Of a stretch of DNA of 64,000 bases, positions 23,962-64,000 are shown in pieces. The position numbers and the translations under genes were made by a program. Source of the DNA: an uncultured Candidatus Cloacimonadota bacterium (GTDB lineage: Bacteria > Cloacimonadota > Cloacimonadia > Cloacimonadales > WRIO01); assembly GCA_964573665.1 (NCBI GenBank), contig CAZNKI010000002.1, forward strand, positions 70,526 to 134,525, written 5' to 3'. The notes beneath the pieces are model-generated. The model searched no databases, was not told the DNA's origin, and worked only from the letters and a program-made list of their open reading frames with translations. Within the stretch, counting starts at the first letter, position 1. Every line of letters begins with the position of its first letter.

Positions 23962-25407
23962 ATGCTCTTTAACTCGATCGACTTTGCAATATTTCTACCC
24001 ATCGTTTTTATTCTTTATTGGTTTGTTTTTCAGCATTCGATTAAAAAACAGAATGTTCTCTTATTAGTTGCAAGTTATTTCTTCTATGGATATTGGGATT
24101 GGAGATTTTTATCGCTCTTATTCATTAGTTCAATAGCAGATTATATTATCGGGATATCATTAGGAAAAACAGACAATCAAAGCAAGAGAAAGCTTCTTCT
24201 TAGTGCGAGTTTATTGATAAATCTGGGCTTGTTAGGCTTTTTCAAATACTTCAATTTTTTTGCTGAATCTTTCGAACAAGCGTTTACTATCTTTGGCCAT
24301 CATATACAGGCTGATCGATTAAAACTAATTTTACCCGTCGGTATTAGCTTTTATACCTTCCAGACCTTGAGTTACAGCATAGATGTTTATCGTAAAAAAA
24401 TAATTCCAACACATGATTTTATTGGCTTTATAACCTTTGTCTCTTTTTTCCCTCAACTTGTCGCCGGACCTATTGAACGTGCCTCACATTTGCTTCCTCA
24501 GTTTCAAAAACCAAGATGTTTTGATATAGATTTAGCAAAAGATGGACTAAGACAAATTCTCTGGGGTCTTTTTAAAAAGATGGTGATTGCAGATAATTGT
24601 GCTGAATTGGCAAATCAAATATTTGCAAATTATCCTTCTTATAATGGATCGACCTTGCTTTTAGGCGCTTTTCTCTTCTCCATTCAGATTTATGGTGATT
24701 TTTCGGGCTATTCAGATATCGCGATTGGGACTGCACGCTTATTTAGTTTTTCATTAATGAAAAATTTTAATTATCCCTACTTTTCTCGTAATATTGCTGA
24801 ATTTTGGAGAAGATGGCATATCTCTTTATCAACTTGGTTTAGAGATTATGTTTATTTTCCACTTGGGGGAAGTTTTGGAAACCAGTTTCAGAAAATTAGA
24901 AATGTGCTGATTATTTTTGTGCTCAGTGGGTTTTGGCATGGAGCAAACTGGACTTTTATGGTTTGGGGCTTTCTCAACGCTTTGTATTATTTACCTTCTT
25001 TACTCAGTAAAACTAATCGAAAATATGCAGAAACGATTGCTCCAAATAGAATTCTCCCAAATCTTATTGAATTATTTCAAATGCTTTTAACAAATATGCT
25101 GATTATCTTTGCATGGATTTTCTTTCGCGCTCAAAGTGTATCTGATGCACTTTTATACATAAATGGAATTCTGTCTCCGACACTTTTTTACCCCTTAGAT
25201 TTGATGAATGGAAAAATGATCGCTACATTAACGCTTGTGCTTGTCTTCATAATTATTGAGTGGATCGGTCGTAATAATAATTTCGCTTTAGAAAAATTAA
25301 AGTATTTAAGTTTTAGACCCTACAGATGGTCGATTTATTATCTTCTCATCATTGTTCTTTTTATCTTCACAGGAAAAGAACAGCAATTTATTTATTTTCA
25401 GTTTTAA
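23962..25407 (+). CDS. MBOAT-family O-acyltransferase (AlgI/DltB-like)
   Basis: 'LPVGISFYTFQ', 'FFPQLVAGPI', 'DFSGYSDIAIG', 'FWRRWHISLSTWFRDYVY', 'SGFWHGA'. Confidence 0.93.
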   Translation: MLFNSIDFAIFLPIVFILYWFVFQHSIKKQNVLLLVASYFFYGYWDWRFLSLLFISSIADYIIGISLGKTDNQSKRKLLLSASLLINLGLLGFFKYFNFFAESFEQAFTIFGHHIQADRLKLILPVGISFYTFQTLSYSIDVYRKKIIPTHDFIGFITFVSFFPQLVAGPIERASHLLPQFQKPRCFDIDLAKDGLRQILWGLFKKMVIADNCAELANQIFANYPSYNGSTLLLGAFLFSIQIYGDFSGYSDIAIGTARLFSFSLMKNFNYPYFSRNIAEFWRRWHISLSTWFRDYVYFPLGGSFGNQFQKIRNVLIIFVLSGFWHGANWTFMVWGFLNALYYLPSLLSKTNRKYAETIAPNRILPNLIELFQMLLTNMLIIFAWIFFRAQSVSDALLYINGILSPTLFYPLDLMNGKMIATLTLVLVFIIIEWIGRNNNFALEKLKYLSFRPYRWSIYYLLIIVLFIFTGKEQQFIYFQF

Positions 25408-25409
25408 AT

Positions 25410-26330
25410 ATGAAGACACTACATTCTTTTACAAAGTATTTCATTATCTTCCTGATTCCAATCCTTGTTTTAGGAATAATAATGGAAATCGCTCTGAGAA
25501 ATATTCCTAATGATTATCGAAATAAATATCAAACATTTAACAAAGTTGCTGATGAAACACAAATATTAATACTTGGAAATTCACATACACTACATGATCT
25601 TAATCCTGCATTTTTTTCCAAAATAACCTTTAATTATGCCAATCCATCACAGTTATATTTTTTCGATGAACTTATCTTAAAGTCTTATATTAAAAAAATG
25701 AATCATCTGGAATGGATCATTTTACCTGTTTCTTACTTCTCATATTATAGAACTCGTGAAGATTCTGAAGAAATGTGGAGATTTAAAAACTATGTACTCT
25801 ATTCTAAAGTTTACAAAAGTCCACAGATTAAAGACAATTCTGAAGTTTTAGGTAATCAGTTCCGCTTTAATCTCAGAAGATTATACAAAAATTATGTGGT
25901 AAAAGAACCTAATGCAGTGTGCGATTCATTAGGATTTGCTTATAACTATCTTTTAAAAGATAAACAAGATCTGAAAAAGACTGCGAAACATACCATAAAA
26001 TCTCATGATAAAGGGAATGAAGAAAGCATTGCTGTTAATATTGAACTTCTGAAAAGAGTCATCAAGATGGCGCAGGAGCGGAATGTTAAGGTATTATTGA
26101 TTACACCCCCAGGATCAAAAGATTATCAAAAATTACTCAATTCCAATAAATTAAAGAAAGTAATCAATATCAGCACTAATCTTACTAAATATAAGGATGT
26201 CTTCTACATTAATATGCTTTCTGACCCAAGATTTAATGACACAGATTTCTATGATTCTGACCATCTAAATGTCGATGGAGCAGAAAAACTCTCAAAAATT
26301 ATCAATCATTACATCACAAAACACCAGTAG
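25410..26330 (+). CDS. SGNH-like partner of the MBOAT acyltransferase
   Basis: ATG at 25410; N-terminal TM helix; 'ILGNSH' and C-terminal 'FYDSDHLN..GA' (GxS...DxxH). Confidence 0.7.
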   Translation: MKTLHSFTKYFIIFLIPILVLGIIMEIALRNIPNDYRNKYQTFNKVADETQILILGNSHTLHDLNPAFFSKITFNYANPSQLYFFDELILKSYIKKMNHLEWIILPVSYFSYYRTREDSEEMWRFKNYVLYSKVYKSPQIKDNSEVLGNQFRFNLRRLYKNYVVKEPNAVCDSLGFAYNYLLKDKQDLKKTAKHTIKSHDKGNEESIAVNIELLKRVIKMAQERNVKVLLITPPGSKDYQKLLNSNKLKKVINISTNLTKYKDVFYINMLSDPRFNDTDFYDSDHLNVDGAEKLSKIINHYITKHQ

Positions 26331-35047: not shown

Positions 35048-36082
35048 ATGAAGCTCTTCAAATCAGCTTTGACTTTAGAAAAGATCAATCAATTTGTTCA
35101 GGGTAAATTATCGGTTTCTACTGATAGATTGTTTACCAACGTCGCTGAGCTCCATGAAGCCAATGAACACTCTGTCTGTTTTTATGAAAATGAAAAGTAT
35201 CTGCATCAGGCTGAACAGAGTAAAGCGGGATTAATCATCCTTCCAGAGGGTGTTGTATTAAAAAATGATGCGATTAAGCTTGCCGTTTCAAAGCCCTACT
35301 TCTCATTCATGACTTTAGTGAGTATTTGGCTCAGTATTGATACAAAAAATAGAGTTAACAAGATCTCCGAGCATTGCTCAATTGCAAGCTCTGCTCAGAT
35401 CGGAAACAATGTCTCGATTGCAGATTATGTTGTTATCGAAGAAGGTGTTTCTATTGGAGATCATACGATCATTGAAGCGAATTGTGTCATTAAAGAAAAT
35501 ACAAAAGTTGGGCAATCTTGCCACTTATTCCCCAATGTGACAATCTATCATGACTGCATCGTTGGAAACAACGTGAGTATTCATGCCGGATCAGTGATCG
35601 GTGCAGATGGTTTTGGCTATTTATTGCTCAATGGTCAACAGATCAAGATCCCTCAAGTAGGGAATGTTGTGATCGAGAATGATGTCGAAATAGGCGCAAA
35701 TACTTGTATTGACCGAGCAACGATTGGCACAACTCTGATTAAGTCAGGTGCGAAAATCGATAATCTGGTACAGATTGGTCATAATTGCTCAGTTGATGAA
35801 CATTCAATCATTTGTGCTCAAGTAGGACTCGCAGGTAATTCGAATTTAGGAAAATATGTCTATCTCGGCGGACAAGTTGGCGTCGGTGGACATTTAAAGA
35901 TTGATGACCAAACAATGGTCGGCGCTCAATCTGGAGTCGCTTCTTCAATCAAAACAGGCAAATATTTTGGAAGTCCAGTCATGCCTTTGACGCAACAGCT
36001 TAGAGTGAGCGCGTGCTTAAAGGACTTGCCCGAAATTCATAAATATGTAAAGAAATTGATGAGAGAAAATGATGGAAAATAA
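35048..36082 (+). CDS. lpxD: UDP-3-O-(3-hydroxyacyl)glucosamine N-acyltransferase
   Basis: '[10 protein letters not shown]', '[21 protein letters not shown]', '[11 protein letters not shown]'. Confidence 0.96.
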
Positions 36083-37463
36083 ACAAACAATTGCCGGTCA
36101 AATATCCTTTACAGGCGTTGGCTTACACTTAGGTGAAATTACTACAATTACTTTTAAACCTGCTGAACCCAATGAAGGAATCGTTTTTGTCAGAGTAGAT
36201 CTGCCAGATCAGCCTGAATTCCCTGCTGATATTGACCATGTTCTGGATATATCAAGAGGTACTACACTCGGAATTAAAGGAAAAGCGTCAGTTGCTACCG
36301 TTGAACATGTCTTATCTGCAATAAAAGGTCTTAGAATTGATAATATACGCTGTGAAGTGAACGGACCTGAAGTGCCCGTTGCTGATGGCTCTGCAATTAT
36401 GTTTTTAAGACTGCTCAAAGAAGTTGGATTGGTCGAACAAGATGCAGAACGCGTTTACTTTGAACTCACTGAACCTATCTCTTTTTCTGCACCGGAAGAT
36501 AATGTGGATATCGTGATTGTTCCTTCGAATGAACTAAAAATTACCTTTATGGTTGAATACCAGCATAAAAACCTTGGAACACAATATACATGGCTTCCTT
36601 CACTGGAATATTTTGAAAAGGAATTTGCTCCAGCCAGAACTTTCTGCTTCTTACATGAAATCCTTGCCCTTAAAGAACATGGCTTAATCAAAGGTGGTTC
36701 ACTCACCAATGCTTTAGTCGTGTCTGATCCAGATAAAGATAAAGAAGAAATTGAACGTTTAAGAAAAATGTTTGATTACACTAAAGAAATTCAAACTAAT
36801 GAATATGGTCTTCTTAACACCACCGATTTAAGATTTTATAATGAATTTGTGCGCCATAAAGTCGTAGATCTGATTGGTGATATCGCTCTTCTGGGTATGC
36901 CAATCAAAGGTCATATCTTAGCTGCTCGATCAGGACATAAAACGAATGTCGAATTAGTAAAAAAACTCAAACAGATATTAAAGAAACAGGAATTACAAAA
37001 AATATATCAAAAGAAGAAATCAACTGAAGTGGTTTTTGATATCAATGCGATTATGAAAATATTACCTCATAGATATCCATTCCTACTGGTAGATAAAATC
37101 GTAAGTTTTGTTCCTGGTGAAAGTATTACCGGGATAAAAAATGTGACGATTAATGAGCCCTTCTTCCAAGGTCATTTCCCTGAACATCCTGTGATGCCAG
37201 GTGTGCTTATTGTTGAAGCAATGGCTCAAACAGGAGGTATTATGCTCCTGAATACGATGCCAAATCCCCAAGACTTCGTCGCTTACTTTGCTTCAATTGA
37301 TAATGTGAAATTTAGAAAACCAGTAATGCCTGGTGATACCTTACGCTTTGAGTTAAAAGCAATCTCAATGAAAACCTTTATAACTAAAATGCACGGTGAT
37401 GCTTATGTCGGCGATGAAAAAGTGTGTGAAGGTGATTTCTTAGCGAAAGTCGTTAAAAAATAG
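36069..37463 (+). CDS. lpxC: Bifunctional LpxC deacetylase / FabZ dehydratase
   Basis: LpxC motifs 'TVEHVLSA', 'P..DGSA', 'ARTF', 'HKVVDLIGD', fused to FabZ '[11 protein letters not shown]', '[20 protein letters not shown]'. Confidence 0.95.
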
Positions 37464-37471
37464 AGGTGATA

Positions 37472-38260
37472 ATGAAAGAAATTCATTCAACTGCAATCGT
37501 TCATCCTAACGCTAAAATAGGCGAAAATGTAAAGATTGGTCCTTATTGTATTATTGGTGAAAATGTTGAGCTCGGAGATGAAAATACATTAATCTCTCAT
37601 GTCGTCATTGATGGGCATACAAAGATTGGGAAAAAAAATACATTCTTCCCCTTCTGCTCAATAGGACTTGCTCCTCAGGATTTAAAATATGATGGTGAGC
37701 CTACTCGTGTTGTGATTGGTGATCAAAATCATATCAGAGAATGTGTGACGATTCACCGCTCTGCAAACCTAAATGAAGATACTACACTTGGCTCAAATTG
37801 CTTAATTATGGCTTATGCGCATATCGCTCATAATTGTCATGTCGGAAACAATGTCATCCTGGCAAATTCTGTCAATTTAGCAGGTCATGTTCATATTCAT
37901 GACTTTGTGACAATCGGTGGCGTCAGCGCTGTTCATCAGTTTGTAAAAATTGGTACTCATGCCTTTATTGGCGGTACTTCAGGCGTCAAGAAAGATATCC
38001 CGCCATATACTCGTGGTCAAGGAATGGGACACTATAAAATTGTCGGTCTAAATAGTGTTGGCTTAAGCAGAAAAGGTTTTTCTAATGATGTGATTGAAGG
38101 TATCAAAAAAGTTTATCGCTTATTCTATACCTCAAATATGAATGTAAGCCAGGCTTTAGAAGTTGCCCTTAAAATTGAAAACCCAACTCCTGAACAAGAA
38201 AACTTTATCAAGTTCGTACAGAACTCTGAAAGAGGTATTACTCGGTACGGAAAAGATTAA
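37472..38260 (+). CDS. lpxA: Acyl-ACP--UDP-N-acetylglucosamine O-acyltransferase
   Basis: 'IHSTAIV', 'PQDLKY', 'RECVTIHR', 'MAYAHIAHNC', 'VHQF', 'GLN..GL.R.GF'. Confidence 0.96.
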   Translation: MKEIHSTAIVHPNAKIGENVKIGPYCIIGENVELGDENTLISHVVIDGHTKIGKKNTFFPFCSIGLAPQDLKYDGEPTRVVIGDQNHIRECVTIHRSANLNEDTTLGSNCLIMAYAHIAHNCHVGNNVILANSVNLAGHVHIHDFVTIGGVSAVHQFVKIGTHAFIGGTSGVKKDIPPYTRGQGMGHYKIVGLNSVGLSRKGFSNDVIEGIKKVYRLFYTSNMNVSQALEVALKIENPTPEQENFIKFVQNSERGITRYGKD

Positions 38261-57123: not shown

Positions 57124-57151
57124 TTGACAATAAATGACTTAAAAATATTCT
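57124..57151 (+). promoter_or_regulatory. Sigma70-like promoter for the prenyltransferase operon
   Basis: TTGACA-16 nt-TATTCT; RBS GAGGAG before ATG 57192. Confidence 0.55.
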
Positions 57152-57191: not shown

Positions 57192-58082
57192 ATGATCATC
57201 CAAAAATATTTTGAAGATAGAGTTGAACTTTTAAATAAAGTCATGGATCAGTATCTTGTTCCTGAAACAGAAGAACCTAAAGTTCTTTATTCTGCAATGA
57301 GATATTCCATTTTTAATGGTGGAAAGAGATTAAGACCGGTTCTTTTATATGCGACTTATGAAATGCTCAATAAAACAAACGATACTTCTCTTTTAGATCA
57401 GGTGTCTTTGGCTGCAGCTGCAATTGAAATGGTGCATACTGCCTCTTTAATTCACGATGATTTACCTTCTTTAGACAATTCTGATGAAAGACGCGGACAA
57501 CTCAGTTGTCACAAAAAGTTTGATCCTGCCACAGCTATTCTCGCAGGCGATGCGCTTTTAACTAAGTCCTTTGAAATGCTTGCAAAAATTGAAGATAAAC
57601 AAAAAGCCGTTAAATGTATTCAGATTTTGAGTAATGCAATTTCCACACGTGGAATGATTGGTGGTCAAACTGTTGATTTGATCTCTTCCTCAAAACAGAA
57701 TATCCAGATCAATGTACTAAAATATGTGCATTTGAAAAAGACAGGTGCTTTACTTGAAGCTTCAATTAAACTGGCTTGTGCAATGTATGGTGCAGATGAA
57801 AATGTAACGAATACCTTGTCAAATTATGCCCTCAATCTTGGTCTTGCTTACCAGATCATTGACGATATTCTTGATGATGTTGGTGATTTCGAAATGCTTG
57901 GAAAAGAGCCTTATGAAGATTCGAGAAACAATAAAACGACTTATCCATCGATTTTAGGGCTCGATAAAGCAAGAAGAACTGCTGAAAAATTACTTGAAGA
58001 TTCATATAAACTAGTAAAGAATATTCCACATAATCAGATTTTAATTGAATTTGTGCGAATGATAAAAGATCGTTTACCTTAA
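57192..58082 (+). CDS. Short-chain polyprenyl diphosphate synthase (FPP/GGPP synthase family)
   Basis: 'GGKRLRP', FARM 'HTASLIHDDLPSLD...RRG', 'GMIGGQ', 'KTGALL', SARM 'YQIIDDILD'. Confidence 0.92.
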   Translation: MIIQKYFEDRVELLNKVMDQYLVPETEEPKVLYSAMRYSIFNGGKRLRPVLLYATYEMLNKTNDTSLLDQVSLAAAAIEMVHTASLIHDDLPSLDNSDERRGQLSCHKKFDPATAILAGDALLTKSFEMLAKIEDKQKAVKCIQILSNAISTRGMIGGQTVDLISSSKQNIQINVLKYVHLKKTGALLEASIKLACAMYGADENVTNTLSNYALNLGLAYQIIDDILDDVGDFEMLGKEPYEDSRNNKTTYPSILGLDKARRTAEKLLEDSYKLVKNIPHNQILIEFVRMIKDRLP

Positions 58083-58099: not shown

Positions 58100-58954
58100 T
58101 TGATGCTATTTCTGAAAAAATTAAAGATTTTTCGACCAGTTAATTGCCTGTTTTCTTTCTTTTGTACTTATTTTGCTGGCGTTTTGACAGAAGTTGCCTT
58201 AAATCCGCTTGATCATTTTCTCTTAGCATTTTCTGCTGCTATGATCGCCGCTGCAGGATATATTATAAATGATGTGTTTGATTTGGAAATTGATAAAGTT
58301 AATCGTCCAGATCGAGTTTTACCTTTGGGCATTATGTCTGTAAATCAGGCAAAATGGCTCTCTCTTGCATTTGCATTTTGGGGGATCTTGATTAGTTATT
58401 CTTTGCCTGGATTTACTTATTTTATCTTTGCAACCTTCAATACTATTCTTTTATATCTCTACGCTTCGTGCTATAAAAAGAAATTGCTTATTGGAAATCT
58501 GATTGTCGCTTGGTCAACCTCATCTGTCTTTTTGTATGGGGCAATAAATAGTACCGATATTTCATTGATTTATCCAATTACTTTGATTGCCTTTCTTTAC
58601 ACTCTGATTAGAGAGTGGACTAAAACGATTGAAGATATGGAAGGCGATAAAAAAGAAAATGCACATACAATTGCTCTTGTGTTAGGAAAGAAAAAAACAA
58701 TCCTAATCTCTTTTATCCCCTTTATTCTTTGCTTTTTTACCTTATTCTTTTTCTACTTTTATGAGAATATTCTGACATTAACAGAATATTATCTTCTAAA
58801 TATATTGATGATATTCCCACTTTTCTTCTTCTTAATCAATTTAATGAAAAGAAGAGAAGAACAAAAAACGGTCCTGTGGACACAAAAAATGATGAAGTTT
58901 GACCAACTATTGGTTATTCTAATCTTCATATTTAGCCATTTCTTTATTAAGTGA
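58100..58954 (+). CDS. UbiA-family digeranylgeranylglyceryl-phosphate (DGGGP) synthase-like prenyltransferase
   Basis: 'RPVN', 'GYIINDVFDLEIDKVNRPDRVLPLG', 'YA...KK..L.GNL.VA', 'REWTKTIEDMEGD'; multi-pass membrane protein adjacent to GGGP synthase. Confidence 0.82.
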   Translation: MMLFLKKLKIFRPVNCLFSFFCTYFAGVLTEVALNPLDHFLLAFSAAMIAAAGYIINDVFDLEIDKVNRPDRVLPLGIMSVNQAKWLSLAFAFWGILISYSLPGFTYFIFATFNTILLYLYASCYKKKLLIGNLIVAWSTSSVFLYGAINSTDISLIYPITLIAFLYTLIREWTKTIEDMEGDKKENAHTIALVLGKKKTILISFIPFILCFFTLFFFYFYENILTLTEYYLLNILMIFPLFFFLINLMKRREEQKTVLWTQKMMKFDQLLVILIFIFSHFFIK

Positions 58955-58961
58955 GGATTAA

Positions 58962-59711
58962 ATGAAAAATGATACCTATTTGAAACTTTTAAAAAAGCGA
59001 GAACAGCATCCTTGTTTGTTTTGTTTAATCGATCCAGATAAAAATGACATAAAGACCAGTGTAAAATACGCTGAAATCTATGAAAAAAGTGATGCTGATG
59101 CCATTTTAATAGGTGGCAGTATTATGATCAAAGATCAATTTGAGCAAACAATCAAAGAGATAAAGAAAGTTGTGAATATCCCTGTTATTATTTTTCCAGG
59201 CTTATTCAATTTTGTGAGTCAGTATGCTGATGCGATTCTTCTTTTAAGTATGCTGAGCAGTAGAAATCCTCAGGTTTTAATCGAAGAACAGGTGCGATGT
59301 GCGCCACAGATTTATCAGACAGGTTTGGAAAGTATTCCAACAGGATATCTTTTGATCGAATCAGGCAATCTTTCCTCAGTGCAATATATGAGTAATAGCC
59401 TTCCAATTCCAAGGAAAAAGAATGATATTGCAATCGTTCATGCCCTTGCTGGTCAATATTTAGGAATGAAAATGATCTATCTCGAAGCAGGTAGCGGAGC
59501 GCAACAGTCTGTCCCTGAAGAAATGATCAAAAGTGTCTCAGAAATTATTGATATTCCCCTAATCGTCGGCGGAGGAATAAGAACACCTCAGGATGCCCAT
59601 AGTAAAGCATTTGCTGGTGCTGATTTTGTAGTGATCGGTACAGTGCTTGAAGATCTGAATGATTTTTCAATAGTTAAAGAATTTAGTCAGGCTGTTCACT
59701 CTGCAAAATGA
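58962..59711 (+). CDS. Geranylgeranylglyceryl-phosphate (GGGP) synthase, group II
   Basis: 'LIDPDK', 'ILIGGS', 'IFPG', 'ADAIL', 'SRNP', 'TGYLLIESG', 'YLEAGSGA', 'VGGGIR', 'VVIGT'. Confidence 0.92.
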   Translation: MKNDTYLKLLKKREQHPCLFCLIDPDKNDIKTSVKYAEIYEKSDADAILIGGSIMIKDQFEQTIKEIKKVVNIPVIIFPGLFNFVSQYADAILLLSMLSSRNPQVLIEEQVRCAPQIYQTGLESIPTGYLLIESGNLSSVQYMSNSLPIPRKKNDIAIVHALAGQYLGMKMIYLEAGSGAQQSVPEEMIKSVSEIIDIPLIVGGGIRTPQDAHSKAFAGADFVVIGTVLEDLNDFSIVKEFSQAVHSAK

Positions 59712-59735: not shown

Positions 59736-60533
59736 ATGATTGATATTCATAATCATCTTTTATTCAATCTTGACGATGGCGCTGATGATCTTGAAACTAC
59801 TCTTCAATATTTAAAACTTGCTGAAGATTCTGGAGTGAAACACTTAGTTTTTACACCACATTACATGCCTGGTTATTACAATAACCATAAAAATAAAATT
59901 CAAACTTCATTTCATGAAGTGTTGAAACATAAAAATGATTACGCCCCGAATTTGACTCTTTATCATTCTGCAGAAGTGTATCTCAATGGTGATACCATCA
60001 TTGATGATATCTATCGGGAAAACTTCTTTATCAATAATACTCAATATGTACTCATCGAAAATAACCTAAATGGCTTTACAGATGATCTTTTTAACTTACT
60101 CTTTCAAATGAACAGAAAGGGTTTACGTCCAATATTAGCACATCCAGAAAGATACAAGGATATTCGTGAAAATGTACAGATTGCAGAAGACTTTATGCAA
60201 AGAGATGTTTATTTGCAAATCAATACAGGCAGCCTATTAGGTGCTCATGGCTCACAAGTTAAGAATGTTGCCCTGGAATTGATTGATAGAGGTTGGGCTC
60301 ATTTCTTAGGATCTGATTGCCATTGTCATTCAGGTGTGTATGATTATGCTGAAGCGCTTGAATTGATTCGAAAAGAGTTTGACGATAAGACAGCTGAACT
60401 GCTCTCAAATACTTTTCCTTCAAAGATGCTTAAGAATGAATCAGTCCCTTATTTTTACCTCAGCAGACAGTTACCCCCAAAGAAGAAAAGTGCTATTGAT
60501 AAATTCTTGTCTTTTATTGGACTATCAGATTAA
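59736..60533 (+). CDS. CpsB/CapC (YwqE-like) PHP-family tyrosine phosphatase
   Basis: 'MIDIHNH...DDGA', 'TPH', 'ILAHPERY', 'LGSDCH'. Confidence 0.9.
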   Translation: MIDIHNHLLFNLDDGADDLETTLQYLKLAEDSGVKHLVFTPHYMPGYYNNHKNKIQTSFHEVLKHKNDYAPNLTLYHSAEVYLNGDTIIDDIYRENFFINNTQYVLIENNLNGFTDDLFNLLFQMNRKGLRPILAHPERYKDIRENVQIAEDFMQRDVYLQINTGSLLGAHGSQVKNVALELIDRGWAHFLGSDCHCHSGVYDYAEALELIRKEFDDKTAELLSNTFPSKMLKNESVPYFYLSRQLPPKKKSAIDKFLSFIGLSD

Positions 60534-60552
60534 TGTGTAAACTGGAGAAGAA

Positions 60553-61527
60553 ATGAAAAAATTGCTTATTACTGGAATTACGGGTTTTATCGGTAAAAAT
60601 GTAGCTCGAAAGATCATAGATCAATATGAAGTAACAGCGCTGATTCGTCCTAAAAGTGCCGTGAACCGCTTTTCTGAGTTTAAAGATAAAATTAACTTTG
60701 TGGAAATAGATCTCGCAAATATCAAAGCGCTAAAAGCTTTCTTAGATAAAAATGCTTTTGATTATATCGTTCATATCGGTGCAATTCGTGGAGGAAGAAA
60801 ATTCTCCAAAGAAGAATATCAAAAAGCGAATGTTTTTGCTACAGAACAATTAGTGCTTAATGCCGTAAAAAATAACTCAAAACTGCTCTTTTGCTCTTCT
60901 GTTGGCGTCTTTGGTGCGATACCAATTGAACTTCCAGCAAACAACCTTACACCAAAACAAGAAGACAATTATTATCATTTTACGAAAATCAGATGTGAAT
61001 CGATTATACAGAAATATGTACTTTCTGGGAAACTCAATGCATATATTCTCAGACCTTCCATTACTTATGGGGGAGAGGACTATGGTTTCCCATATACTTT
61101 ATGCAAACTAATCGACAAAAAGATACTCGTTTATCCCGATCAGCCCATCCGAATCCACATGACACATATCGATTTGATTACTGAAGCCTTTGTTAAAGCG
61201 CTTGAATCAGAATGTCTTAGTGGAAAAGAATGGATCATCGCCGATGATAAACCAGTGATTTTTGAAAACCTGATTCAGTTCATTGCTGATAAGCTTCATC
61301 ATAAAGCATATCCAGACAATCGTAAGATTGACCCTTTCTTTTTTGAAACAGGTGAACGGATTAGTCGTTTGATTAATAGTGAATTATGGGTCAGTCGCTT
61401 TGAGTTGATCTCAAAAAACTGGTATTATGATGTGAAAGATGCTTATGAAGATCTGAAACTAAAAAAATATGAAACGATACCGATGTTCAAGAAAACAATT
61501 GACTGGTATCTGTCCTTAAAAAAATAA
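60553..61527 (+). CDS. NAD-dependent epimerase/dehydratase (extended SDR)
   Basis: 'ITGITGFIG' GxxGxxG, 'CSSVGVFG', catalytic 'YHFTK', 'LRPSITYG'. Confidence 0.88.
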   Translation: MKKLLITGITGFIGKNVARKIIDQYEVTALIRPKSAVNRFSEFKDKINFVEIDLANIKALKAFLDKNAFDYIVHIGAIRGGRKFSKEEYQKANVFATEQLVLNAVKNNSKLLFCSSVGVFGAIPIELPANNLTPKQEDNYYHFTKIRCESIIQKYVLSGKLNAYILRPSITYGGEDYGFPYTLCKLIDKKILVYPDQPIRIHMTHIDLITEAFVKALESECLSGKEWIIADDKPVIFENLIQFIADKLHHKAYPDNRKIDPFFFETGERISRLINSELWVSRFELISKNWYYDVKDAYEDLKLKKYETIPMFKKTIDWYLSLKK

Positions 61528-61539
61528 ACTGGAGTTAAT

Positions 61540-62391
61540 GTGGCTATTCCAATCTTACACTTTTGGGAAAAGTATTATTCCAATCCTGATGAAGGATTAG
61601 GCTCAACTTATGAACGCTTTATGATCAACAGAGTATTGATCAAAGCATTGAGACATTTTAATGTAAAAACTGTACTGGAAGCCCCTTCTTTTGGTTTTAC
61701 TGGAATGAGTGGAATTAACAGTGTGCCTTATGCGCTTAAAGCTTGTGAGGTAACACTAATGGATCATGATCAAAAGAGAATTGAATATATAGAAAAAACA
61801 TGGAAAGAATTGAACTTAGATTTAAAGACGATTTTTACAGAAGATTATTTGAAGATTAATCGCCCTGATAATTGTTTTGATCTTTCATGGAACTTTTCAG
61901 CACTTTGGTTTGTCTCGGATCTCTCCGCTTTTTTAAAGGAACTTGATCGCGTAACCAGAAAAGTCATATTGATCATGGTGCCCAATCAGACAGGGATAGG
62001 CTATATTCAACAAAAGTATTTTGGACAGGATGACTTAAAAAAATATCTGAATGAAGATTTTATCAAGATCCCTCGTATTAAAAGTGAAATGAAGTCCCTG
62101 GGCTGGTCATTGCTTAACCATGAATATATTGATTGCCCACTCTGGCCAGATATTGGGATGTCAAAAGAAGACTTTTTAAAGAAACTTCATCTCTCTGCTT
62201 TACTCCCAAAACAAAAAGTTCAGCATGTAAAAAAACCCGTGACTATATTAGATTATTATTCTGGAAAAGAACCCTCAATGGAAAAACAGTTTGCTGCGTA
62301 TGAGTTCTTTGAAAAACATGCTCCAGAAACTTTTAAAAGATTTTGGGCGCATCATCAGTTTTTACTCTTTACAAAAAATAAGACAAAATAA
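61540..62391 (+). CDS. Putative class I SAM-dependent methyltransferase-like protein
   Basis: GTG start after GGAG; 'VLEAPSFGFTG' motif-I-like, 'VTLMD' motif II, 'FDLSWNFSALWF', 'ILIMVPN'. Confidence 0.55.
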   Translation: MAIPILHFWEKYYSNPDEGLGSTYERFMINRVLIKALRHFNVKTVLEAPSFGFTGMSGINSVPYALKACEVTLMDHDQKRIEYIEKTWKELNLDLKTIFTEDYLKINRPDNCFDLSWNFSALWFVSDLSAFLKELDRVTRKVILIMVPNQTGIGYIQQKYFGQDDLKKYLNEDFIKIPRIKSEMKSLGWSLLNHEYIDCPLWPDIGMSKEDFLKKLHLSALLPKQKVQHVKKPVTILDYYSGKEPSMEKQFAAYEFFEKHAPETFKRFWAHHQFLLFTKNKTK

Positions 62392-62407
62392 TAGTTGATT
62401 TTAATTT

Positions 62408-63418
62408 ATGAATAAAATGATAACAAAGATACTCATTAGTATCGGCATTGGACTTGTTTTTTTGGTGATTTGGTGGCATTGGATTGATTTTCCTTTGCTG
62501 GTATCCTATTTCTCAAAAATCAATGTAAAAGTAGCAATTCTTGCTTTTATCTTTTATATCTTTTCATATTTTATTCGCTCTTATCGATGGAGATTATTAC
62601 TCTCCACTTCCAAAAAGATCAAACAAAAAGACGCTTTCTCTTATCTGATGGCAGGTAACTTTATCAATTATCTGATACCAATCAGAGCAGGTGAAGTGAC
62701 AAAATGTCTCTTTATCAAAAAAAACTACGGCATCCCGATGAGTCAGTCTTTTCCTTCGGTATTTATCGATAAGTTATTCGATATGTTTGGAATCTTTGTG
62801 ATTATTATTCTGATCCCTTTGATCCCAATCAATTTAGATCCATATCTTTCTTCGCTGATCTTTCTTTTGATTTTTGTCTTTTTCTTTGGCGCTTCTGTAC
62901 TTATTTTTGCAACATATAAAGAAGAAAAGGTGATTACTCTTTTGCAAAAGATGTTATTTTTCTTTCCAAAGAAATATAAAATCAAAATCCACGATTTTAT
63001 CGAATTGTTCATTCAAGGAACAGCAATATTCAAAAATCATATCAACTTACTTCTGCCTTGTATCCTTCTTACGCTTTGTTCAGTGGTTTGTGATAGTTTA
63101 TTCTTTTGGAGTGTGTTTAAAGCATTCTCTCAAAAGATTGACTTTGTCTTTGTACTTTTTGGTTATACTTTAATTTTTCTCAGTTATATATTACCACATC
63201 CTCCAGCGCAAATTGGATCAAATGAACTGATCATGGTTCTGATTTTCTCAGTTGGATTTGGCTACTCAAAAGAAATGGTCAGTGCCGTTATGACCTTCTC
63301 TCATCTCATAACAGGCATTATTGTGGTTACAGTGGGTATGCTCGGATTGAGCTACTCTGGATTTAACTTAATTGATTTTTTAAGAAATGGAGATAAAAAT
63401 GAATCAAGAGATGCGTAA
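62408..63418 (+). CDS. UPF0104 / lysylphosphatidylglycerol-synthase TM-domain (flippase-like) membrane protein
   Basis: 'RSYRWRLLL', '[14 protein letters not shown]', 'DKLFD', '[11 protein letters not shown]'; multi-pass membrane protein. Confidence 0.85.
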
Positions 63419-64000
63419 TTTAGAAATCCTCGACAATTTAAAAAACACAAAAGAACAGATCTTGAAAGAATTACATAAAGTAATTATTGGTCAGGATCAG
63501 GTGATTGAGCAGATCATGATTGCTATGTTTGCCAACGGACATTGTCTGATTGAAGGTGTGCCTGGTTTAGCAAAAACATTAATGATTTCAACTCTGGCAA
63601 AAATCCTCCAGCTCAAGTTCAGCCGTATTCAATTTACTCCTGACTTGATGCCTTCTGATATTACAGGAACAGAAGTCCTTACTGAAAACAAAAATGATGG
63701 ATCACGCTTCTTCCAGTTTATCAAGGGTCCCATTTTCTCCAATCTGATCTTAGCCGATGAAATTAATAGAACACCACCTAAAACTCAATCAGCTTTACTT
63801 CAGGCGATGCAGGAATTTCAGGTGAGTGTTGGCAATACAACTTATCCTTTAAACGCTCCATTTCTTGTACTGGCGACACAGAATCCTATTGAACAGGAAG
63901 GAACCTATCCTTTGCCTGAAGCGCAGCTTGACCGCTTTATGATGAATATTATTGTTGATTATCCTGATTTTGAAGAAGAAAAGAAAATTGTCATGAGTAC
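63399..64000 (+). CDS. MoxR-family AAA+ ATPase (5' part; runs off the window end)
   Basis: Not in the ORF track. Translated by hand from ATG 63399: 'KVIIGQ', '[14 protein letters not shown]', '[15 protein letters not shown]', '[22 protein letters not shown]', '[22 protein letters not shown]'. Confidence 0.92.

Follow-up and report, generated by a model that had tools for sequence, protein, structure and literature searches.

A Conserved Eight-Gene Block Joins Archaeal-Type Ether-Lipid Genes to a Candidate Lipid-Tailoring Module in Cloacimonadota

Introduction

The principal case for natural membranes of a "mixed" archaeal/bacterial type rests on the GGGPS and DGGGPS genes of Cloacimonadota. 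GGGPS activity was shown by Villanueva et al., and two Cloacimonetes enzymes alone were reported to yield phosphatidylglycerol (PG)-archaeol in Escherichia coli (PMC7852524). It was also reported that bacterial CdsA can stand in for CarS (PMC7852524). The words "operon", "phosphatase", and "synteny" are absent from the main text of that study, and the genes located behind GGGPS/DGGGPS are discussed neither there nor in later Cloacimonadota papers. Here, we describe these genes in a 64,000-nt stretch of DNA (the window) from an uncultured Candidatus Cloacimonadota bacterium (GenBank assembly GCA_964573665.1, contig CAZNKI010000002.1), in which they are now placed in an eight-gene unit. Its last five genes encode a PHP phosphoesterase (PHP), an extended short-chain dehydrogenase/reductase (SDR), a class I methyltransferase-like protein (MT), an LPG_synthase_TM membrane protein (LPGTM), and a MoxR ATPase (MoxR).

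Other described systems are of relevance to these five genes. LPG_synthase_TM genes occur in the lipid head-group operon gpgSDF, where a flippase role has been predicted (PMC12713373), and another member of the family, HpnL, is encoded beside hopanoid genes (bioRxiv 10.1101/2025.07.29.667474). In addition, a dephosphorylation branch is known for heptaprenylglyceryl phosphate (HepGP) in Bacillus and has been proposed for digeranylgeranylglyceryl phosphate (DGGGP) in Haloferax (PMC9179154).

We propose, tentatively and with less than even confidence, that a membrane lipid with an isoprenoid anchor is tailored at its polar end and translocated by the five-gene module, with geranylgeranylglyceryl phosphate (GGGP) or DGGGP as the likely substrates in this genome. 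The module was probably co-transcribed ancestrally with the ether-lipid genes and is probably not dependent on them in cis, possibly not at all. The block supplies candidate enzymes for the fate of bacterial GGGP and DGGGP.

Organization and Conservation of the Block

All eight genes lie on the + strand. The block begins with a prenyl diphosphate synthase of the GGPP-synthase type (IDS, 57192-58082), followed by a UbiA/DGGGPS-like prenyltransferase (58100-58954) and PcrB/GGGPS (58962-59711). The separable five-gene module then starts with the CpsB-type PHP (59736-60533) and continues with the SDR (60553-61527), MT (61540-62391), and LPGTM (62408-63418). The last gene is that of MoxR, an AAA+ ATPase, whose ATG lies at 63399 and which runs past the window end at 64000, so that only its N-terminal 200 amino acids (aa) are present. 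From GGGPS onward, the junctions comprise gaps of 24, 19, 12, and 16 nt and then a 20-nt overlap of LPGTM and MoxR; the original prediction had given exactly these gaps and a final overlap. Its statement that no terminator was seen also agrees with a consensus scan of the block, in which the intergenic gaps were free of + strand terminator-like sites; over the full 7.5 kb, three such sites occur versus 2.9 expected, none of them between genes. A promoter-like site (TTGACA-16 nt-TATTCT, 57124..57151, + strand, a consensus match only) is located approximately 40 nt before IDS, inside the 506-nt divergent gap to the TldD/PmbA genes, and promoter-like sites in the region show no excess over shuffled sequence. 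IDS to MoxR is a tightly packed, transcription-unit-like block of eight genes.

With regard to expression, three metatranscriptome runs yielded only contigs of 150-205 nt inside the SDR gene, none of which crosses a junction. These contigs (window 60565-61419) come from the wastewater/digester metatranscriptomes X23, X26, and X27, with identities of 99-100% in X23 and X27 and 95-99% in X26. Thus, the SDR gene is expressed in situ, with coverage that is thin for operon structure. Near-identical DNA was also found in wastewater and sludge metagenomes.

The conservation of the block was assessed in 27 loci from a GGGPS scan of species-representative genomes and in 80 further loci from a metagenome scan with an MT-protein profile; these loci (cited below by handle) are not all independent, and some pairs are near-identical. 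All seven GGGPS loci labelled Cloacimonadota keep the order IDS-DGGGPS-GGGPS-PHP-SDR-MT-LPGTM-MoxR as far as their contigs reach, with GGGPS identities of 55-79%. The closest named relative, L001 (a Candidatus Cloacimonadota metagenome-assembled genome, MAG), shares 79% identity in GGGPS and 85% in IDS. In the 20 other GGGPS loci (Zixibacteria, Marinimicrobia, Ignavibacteria, WOR-3, Bacteroidales, and others), DGGGPS, SDR, MT, and LPGTM are not nearby. Across loci, the median gaps of the junctions range from -8 to +8 nt, and the block is intact down to approximately 45-55% protein identity. With dozens of diverged loci showing this order, the arrangement exceeds what chance would give. Homologues of TldD, PmbA, and Oad occur in no locus, and the flanks differ even in L001. 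Since gene order is kept while both flanks change, the block is a selected unit, and the lack of conserved flanks sets its limits at IDS and MoxR. The idea that the downstream genes form an uninterrupted extension of the ether-lipid operon is thereby borne out for a large part of Cloacimonadota.

Where the upstream region of a locus was visible, the locus could be assigned to one of several types. Type A (26 loci) has the full window order, with IDS-DGGGPS-GGGPS as the upstream isoprenoid genes. In type A' (L033, L090, and L124), GGGPS alone precedes PHP-SDR-MT, and IDS and DGGGPS are not nearby. Type B (20 loci) has the order IDS-PHP-SDR-MT-LPGTM-MoxR, in which an IDS homologue is the only isoprenoid gene and DGGGPS and GGGPS are absent within 10 kb. 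Type C (L030, L035, L051, L052, and L069) contains SDR-MT with glycosyltransferases (GTs) or alone. In addition, a secreted protein with a type IX secretion system tail and dockerin and cohesin domains is encoded on the minus strand within the block in L079 (938-3442), L083 (6333-8360), and L093, which belong to one deep-branching type A lineage.

Loci without Ether-Lipid Genes

At the locus level, the five-gene module can be separated from the ether-lipid genes. An IDS homologue is located directly upstream of PHP in L031, L047, L056, L073, L081, L087, L092, L094, L098, L100, L101, L103, L106, L108-L112, and L116, and the MT of one type B locus shows 100% identity to a protein that carries the label Candidatus Cloacimonadota. 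A neighbour-joining tree built from SDR and MT, which carries no support values, groups type B in a single clade and leaves type A paraphyletic, suggesting a single loss or relocation of DGGGPS-GGGPS.

The state of the prenyl synthase motifs follows the presence or absence of DGGGPS and GGGPS at the locus. In type A, the three checked aspartates of the first and second aspartate-rich motifs (FARM and SARM) are intact in 25 of 25 IDS sequences. In type B, the third FARM aspartate is kept in three of 20 sequences, the first SARM aspartate is replaced by glutamate in 15 of 20, and the last one is replaced by alanine, glutamate, or lysine in at least 14. These proteins are full-length, with the FARM changed from DDxxxxD to DDxxxxM/K/N and the SARM from DDxxD to EDxxE/A/K. 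Among the IDS homologues lacking DGGGPS/GGGPS at the locus, only those of L031, L032, and L056 keep the motifs. Judged from these changes, the type B prenyl synthase may be inactive or re-purposed. The module itself is still under selection where the synthase motifs degenerate.

The original prediction had expected the downstream genes to co-occur with GGGPS/DGGGPS in relatives. They do so in at least 26 type A loci; however, the 20 type B loci retain the module, all its checked catalytic residues included, without these genes within 10 kb, so the expectation holds only in part. Because type B retains the module, its substrate need not be an archaeal-type ether lipid, and because relatives lacking the ether-lipid genes at the locus keep the module intact, a simple description as a glyco-archaeol pathway does not fit it. 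Comparing type A with type B lineages offers a natural way to ask whether ether lipids are really used by these bacteria. Should the module turn out to be independent of such lipids, it would serve as a warning against inferring a pathway from operon adjacency alone.

Proteins Encoded by the Block

Ether-Lipid Enzymes and the Upstream Oxidoreductase

The IDS protein matches polyprenyl_synt (1.7e-59) and exceeds the cutoff of the FPPsyn subfamily (300 versus 275 bits). Ala-Ser occupies positions -5/-4 ahead of DDLPSLD, which, by the CrtE and IspA motifs, we take to indicate a GGPP chain length. The second protein belongs to UbiA (1.5e-31), and its best NCBIfam models are the DGGGPS equivalogs (2.7e-50, under their cutoffs); it matches a phosphoribosyltransferase model at 1.8e-4 only and is DGGGPS-like instead. 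Its Cloacimonetes orthologues are among the enzymes with which PG-archaeol was obtained in E. coli (PMC7852524). GGGPS was assigned to PcrB (7.7e-45) and exceeds the cutoffs of both TIGR01769 (GGGP; 209 versus 161.55 bits) and NF003198 (291 versus 247 bits).

In 16 type A loci (L002:7120-8148, L003, L004, L006, L043, L049, L057, L061, L065, L066, L070, L080, L085, L086, L097, and L099), IDS is preceded at a distance of 2-69 nt by a same-strand gene for a GFO/IDH/MocA oxidoreductase (approximately 343 aa), which is also present at L122 and L123. Its best model is inositol 2-dehydrogenase (138 bits versus a cutoff of 355). The gene is absent from the 64-kb window and from L001, and a single type B locus has it; the distribution of the ether-lipid genes is matched more closely by this gene than by the downstream module.

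One further role considered for an oxidoreductase is that the SDR or, in most relatives, this upstream enzyme might supply the glycerol-1-phosphate (G1P) required by GGGPS, replacing the G1P dehydrogenase (G1PDH) reported missing from Black Sea MAGs. Proximity to IDS in type A and near absence from type B would fit such a role, which we nevertheless consider extremely unlikely. Neither the SDR nor the GFO/IDH/MocA family is known to reduce dihydroxyacetone phosphate to G1P. Both type B loci and GT clusters that lack GGGPS retain the SDR, the window has no GFO/IDH/MocA gene, and G1PDH orthologues were reported in Cloacimonetes by Coleman et al.

PHP Phosphoesterase

PHP is a member of CpsB_CapC (PF19567, 1.1e-49; 169 bits versus a cutoff of 27). 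It aligns with the YwqE structure 3qy6 at 2e-31 (also with 3qy8) over all of the motifs HxH, TPH, E80, AHPER, and SDxH. The metal-binding and catalytic residues (HxH, H42, E80, H136/E138/R139, and D194/H196) are present, and these nine do not vary among the 50 sequences compared (30 of type A and 20 of type B). The protein scores under the cutoff of the Cps4B equivalog (124 versus 400 bits), and no BY-kinase, Wzz-type, or capsule gene was found beside it in any annotated locus.

In approximately 50 loci, PHP sits between GGGPS (or IDS) and SDR-MT. Its gene comes immediately after GGGPS in three kinds of locus, with two examples outside Cloacimonadota, where the order is alaS-GGGPS-PHP and the rest of the module is missing (L010:7348-11548, labelled Cytophagia; L027:5047-9713, labelled Deferribacteres). 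The dephosphorylation of DGGGP, which had been suggested for this enzyme, has a precedent in the HepGP and Ac-archaeol pathways (PMC9179154). However, since PHP retains the complete tyrosine-phosphatase site of YwqE/CpsB, its action on a lipid is something that we infer.

SDR-MT Enzyme Pair

The SDR matches Epimerase (PF01370, 6.5e-28; 98 bits versus a cutoff of 20.9) and contains TGxxGxxG and S...YxxxK. Seven of the eight checked residues (T7, G8, G11, G14, S115, Y141, and K145) are invariant in types A and B, and the eighth, S116, is threonine in two of 30 type A sequences. The protein falls outside the named sugar-nucleotide families, as it reaches 60 bits (1.4e-16) against the HpnA cutoff of 368 and 54 bits against the GalE cutoff of 262. 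Sequence matches in the PDB are generic and were dropped as a guide to the substrate.

The MT protein matches Methyltransf_11 (7.6e-8; 33.3 bits versus a cutoff of 21.2), as do 46 of 50 family members; the family has no NCBIfam match. Its signatures, seen in alignments A1-A3, are MAIPI, DEGLGxxYER, ExPxxGxxGxxGxNS, WNF, PN, DxPxWPD, and WAHH. Motif I, E47-x-P49-xx-G52-xx-G55-xx-G58, is conserved but atypical compared with GxGxG, and is followed by an acidic D75 after strand 2. The signature is kept in types A and B except for D17, D114, and N118, which vary in some sequences. An AF2 model (pLDDT 93) has the class I methyltransferase fold, with a Foldseek probability of 1.0 to many methyltransferases and a TM-score of approximately 0.5 to any solved structure. 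The top matches are small-molecule methyltransferases (FPP C6-methyltransferase, SpnF, RebM, TleD, and others); they are near-tied and non-discriminating, and no substrate was taken from them.

A profile search of 1.84 billion cluster representatives returned 459 MT relatives at E<=1e-3, and a second search with profile A2 recovered largely the same close family. Among the ten longest representatives that were scanned, six are SDR-MT fusions, one is an MT-GT2 fusion, one is an MT-DUF362 fusion, and one has two methyltransferase domains. The gap between SDR and MT is <=30 nt in 73 of 82 loci. SDR and MT are an obligate two-enzyme pair and the core of the module. The MT family is uncharacterised, is widespread with an SDR partner, and is linked to membrane glycosylation and lipid clusters. 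In one lineage, a gene with DUF362 and a 4Fe-4S ferredoxin domain lies between MT and LPGTM (L072:2109-3221); together with the MT-DUF362 fusion found elsewhere (protein P0217), this suggests a further redox partner of the family.

SDR-MT behaves as a mobile unit and is also found in GT2/GT-C clusters that have no GGGPS. Outside Cloacimonadota, the cluster partners of SDR-MT include GT2, double GT2, GT-C of the PMT_2/TMEM260 type, radical SAM, and further MT genes, and SDR-MT homologues or fusions occur among GT, radical SAM, or MT genes in L030, L034, L035, L069, L119, and L120. In L030, the double GT2 has an N-terminal half similar to ArnC, AglJ, and dolichyl-phosphate hexose transferases. 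In L030 and L035, the cluster also holds a GGPP/FPP-type synthase and a divergent UbiA prenyltransferase. The latter was considered as a phosphoribosyltransferase like that of decaprenyl-phospho-arabinose (DPA) synthesis; NCBIfam gives only a divergent prenyltransferase, and the likeness stays an analogy.

The GT2/GT-C surroundings point to lipid-linked sugars, yet the window operon is without a GT. On this basis, the module might serve an envelope glycan or a polyprenyl-phosphate-linked sugar and have no specific tie to archaeal-type ether lipids: SDR-MT would modify a nucleotide- or lipid-linked sugar and LPGTM would flip it, with the GTs encoded elsewhere and the adjacency to GGGPS/DGGGPS either historical or due only to a shared need for a prenyl diphosphate. 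The ArnC/AglJ-like GT2 of L030, the intact type B module, and the best SDR model (HpnA, a hopanoid-associated sugar epimerase) are in line with such a function. On the other hand, a GT was found neither in the operon nor in the scanned part of the window, and every Cloacimonadota-type arrangement keeps the module attached to IDS or GGGPS. The usual sugar carrier lipids come from cis-prenyl synthases, and the window synthase, being trans-type and short-chain, would be an unusual source of them. We regard a role in sugar tailoring as somewhat unlikely.

LPG_synthase_TM Protein

LPGTM matches PF03706 (6.1e-42) over profile positions 3-302 of 302, and TIGR00374 with 100 bits (cutoff 43.2). The flippase-like membrane protein of the original prediction is thus a full-length member of the family of the MprF flippase domain, AglD, and HpnL. 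It has 336 aa and consists of the transmembrane domain only, with no synthase or GT domain; no head-group synthase or GT gene lies next to it in the operon. No PDB sequence match was found, the GlcN-PG flippase equivalog gives 23 bits versus a cutoff of 320, and HpnL is not among the hits at E<=0.001. In L124 (10001-14408, on a 3.9-Mb contig), an IS200-type transposase is followed by GGGPS-PHP-SDR-MT-MoxR without LPGTM, and IDS and DGGGPS are not nearby. The membrane protein is dispensable at that locus, and MoxR is retained.

MoxR ATPase

The truncated MoxR of the window gave weak AAA matches only, while the full-length L001 orthologue matches AAA_3 at 2e-63; through this orthologue, Pfam and NCBIfam agree with the families that had been assigned to all five downstream genes. 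All six checked residues, including G53, K59, T60, D120, and E121 of Walker A/B, are invariant in types A and B. No DUF58 or vWA gene was found downstream of MoxR in the Cloacimonadota-type loci examined, the window itself ending inside MoxR, and the junction between LPGTM and MoxR is the tightest of all (median -8 nt; <=30 nt in 48 of 52 loci). For both reasons, we rejected MoxR as the start of an unrelated Bat-type MoxR-DUF58-vWA operon.

The genes after MoxR vary and include purA-like, rubrerythrin, MarR-like, kdsB-like, and LVIVD-protein genes. In type B, a conserved secreted protein of approximately 310 aa with LVIVD (beta-propeller) repeats is encoded behind MoxR (L031, L056, L087, L092, L094, L098, L102, L103, L106, L108, and L110-L112), and in 12 type A loci a MarR-like protein (approximately 151 aa) is found there instead. 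The MoxR proteins also match Pfam bpMoxR, which describes MoxR-vWA-beta-propeller systems.

Proposed Function of the Module

In our proposal, the polar end of the lipid would be tailored on the cytoplasmic face. Briefly, PHP would strip phosphate from a lipid phosphate, likely GGGP or DGGGP in genomes such as this one. The SDR would catalyse an oxidoreduction dependent on NAD(P), and the paired MT a transfer dependent on S-adenosylmethionine. LPGTM would carry the product across the membrane, as proposed for the family in MprF, gpgSDF, and hexSDF, and MoxR would act as an assembly chaperone. Our confidence is held down because the module persists without cis ether-lipid genes and because its relatives point to lipid-linked sugar chemistry, for which a transferase is lacking in this operon.

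Several observations weigh against this proposal. PHP is a full CpsB/YwqE-type enzyme, and the known substrates of that family are phosphotyrosine proteins. In other phyla, SDR-MT sits in clusters with GT2 and GT-C. The 20 type B loci keep the module beside a degenerate prenyl synthase, LPGTM is missing in L124, and SDR-MT stands alone in L051 and L052. A reverse-strand gene separates PHP from SDR-MT-LPGTM in L079, L083, and L093, and the block is therefore no single transcript there. Furthermore, the flippase activity of stand-alone LPG_synthase_TM members is itself unverified (PMC12713373).

The lost or split pieces (L051, L052, L079, L083, and L124) would also be expected if the five genes were unrelated passengers of a long housekeeping operon, with PHP as a tyrosine phosphatase, MoxR as a general chaperone, SDR-MT as small-molecule enzymes, and gene order as a matter of convenience and inertia. 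The complete YwqE/CpsB site of PHP is compatible with this, as is MoxR, whose conservation (72-90% identity) exceeds that of every other gene in the block and which is also found away from it in L011. However, the block persists at low protein identity although its flanks are exchanged, junctions overlap or are near zero at every gene boundary, and PHP has its BY-kinase partner next to it in no locus. An assembly of passengers therefore seems to us distinctly unlikely.

A narrower form of lipid tailoring was contained in the original prediction, in which PHP acts on DGGGP, the SDR provides or epimerises a sugar that is modified by the MT, and the resulting glyco-archaeol is flipped by the UPF0104 protein, independently of CarS. 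The tight operon with GGGPS and DGGGPS in type A, the adjacency of GGGPS and PHP in three contexts, and the branch proposed for DGGGP in Haloferax speak for this route. However, a GT that could add the sugar was found neither within the operon nor in the scan of the window at approximately 21-57 kb, and so glyco-archaeol is not buildable by these genes alone; the module alone does not make a glycolipid. The module also persists without DGGGPS/GGGPS at the locus, beside a degenerate IDS. Nor is a CarS-free route required, since CdsA substitutes for CarS and PG-archaeol was made in E. coli by two Cloacimonetes enzymes alone (PMC7852524). We consider the glyco-archaeol route very unlikely.

Within the tailoring proposal, a more specific version can be formulated, namely that PHP, SDR-MT, and LPGTM form a previously unrecognised CDP-independent head-group pathway for bacterial isoprenoid lipids, by which GGGP, DGGGP, or another prenyl phosphate would be converted into a phosphate-free, oxidised or alkylated lipid and exported to the outer leaflet. 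In this specific form, the pathway is improbable. If true, SDR-MT would represent a new family of paired enzymes with direct action on lipid-linked substrates, and the use that FCB bacteria make of archaeal-type lipid genes would be explained.

Other Envelope Genes in the Window

Among the genes covered by the scan of the window from 21 to 57 kb are lpxD-lpxC/fabZ-lpxA, alaS, and genes for an asparagine synthase, a Wzx-like protein, and an MBOAT protein with DUF1574. The genes at 35048-38260 (+ strand), which encode LpxD, a fused LpxC/FabZ, and LpxA, suggest that the organism makes lipid A beside its archaeal-type lipid genes. The MBOAT O-acyltransferase gene followed by DUF1574 (23962-26330, + strand) may represent a DltB/AlgI-like pair for acylating an envelope polymer.

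Comparison with Known Systems

PHP matches the CpsB/YwqE phosphatases, with which every metal-binding and catalytic motif aligns; the context differs, as PHP here is without a BY-kinase or capsule genes. With regard to the membrane protein, MprF and gpgSDF of Pseudomonas aeruginosa resemble the module in that a stand-alone LPG_synthase_TM gene lies behind cytoplasmic enzymes able to build or trim a head group. The hexSDF genes of Clostridioides difficile are organized in a like manner. In contrast to these systems, the module has no synthase, GT, or deacetylase and contains PHP, the SDR, the MT-fold protein, and MoxR.

In the hopanoid genes hpnA (SDR), hpnB (GT2), and hpnL, as in the block, an HpnA-like SDR and a UPF0104-type protein are encoded beside isoprenoid-lipid genes. 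However, the SDR of the block lies far under the HpnA cutoff, shc and other hopanoid genes are lacking, and the lipid would be a glycerol ether.

A further likeness is that to the Arn and DPA systems (UbiA-type transferase, phosphatase, DprE2 SDR, and GT-C). In these systems, as in the block, a UbiA-family prenyltransferase occurs together with a phosphatase, an SDR, and translocation across the membrane, and SDR-MT of other phyla occurs with an ArnC-like GT2 and an ArnT/PMT_2-like GT-C. Unlike in these systems, the UbiA protein here is DGGGPS-like, and the Cloacimonadota operon has no GT2 or GT-C.

Finally, in PcrB/YvoF of Bacillales and in the proposed Ac-archaeol pathway of Haloferax, the product of a GGGPS-family enzyme would be dephosphorylated and the free glycerol hydroxyl then derivatised, with no cytidine diphosphate (CDP) intermediate (PMC9179154). 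The Bacillus phosphatase is unnamed in that study, and a CpsB-type PHP is not tied to the pathway. The operon described here is without a YvoF-type acetyltransferase, and the SDR and MT would carry out the derivatisation; it shares with the PcrB/YvoF pathway the pairing of a GGGPS-family enzyme with a phosphoesterase, whose gene here lies directly behind GGGPS.

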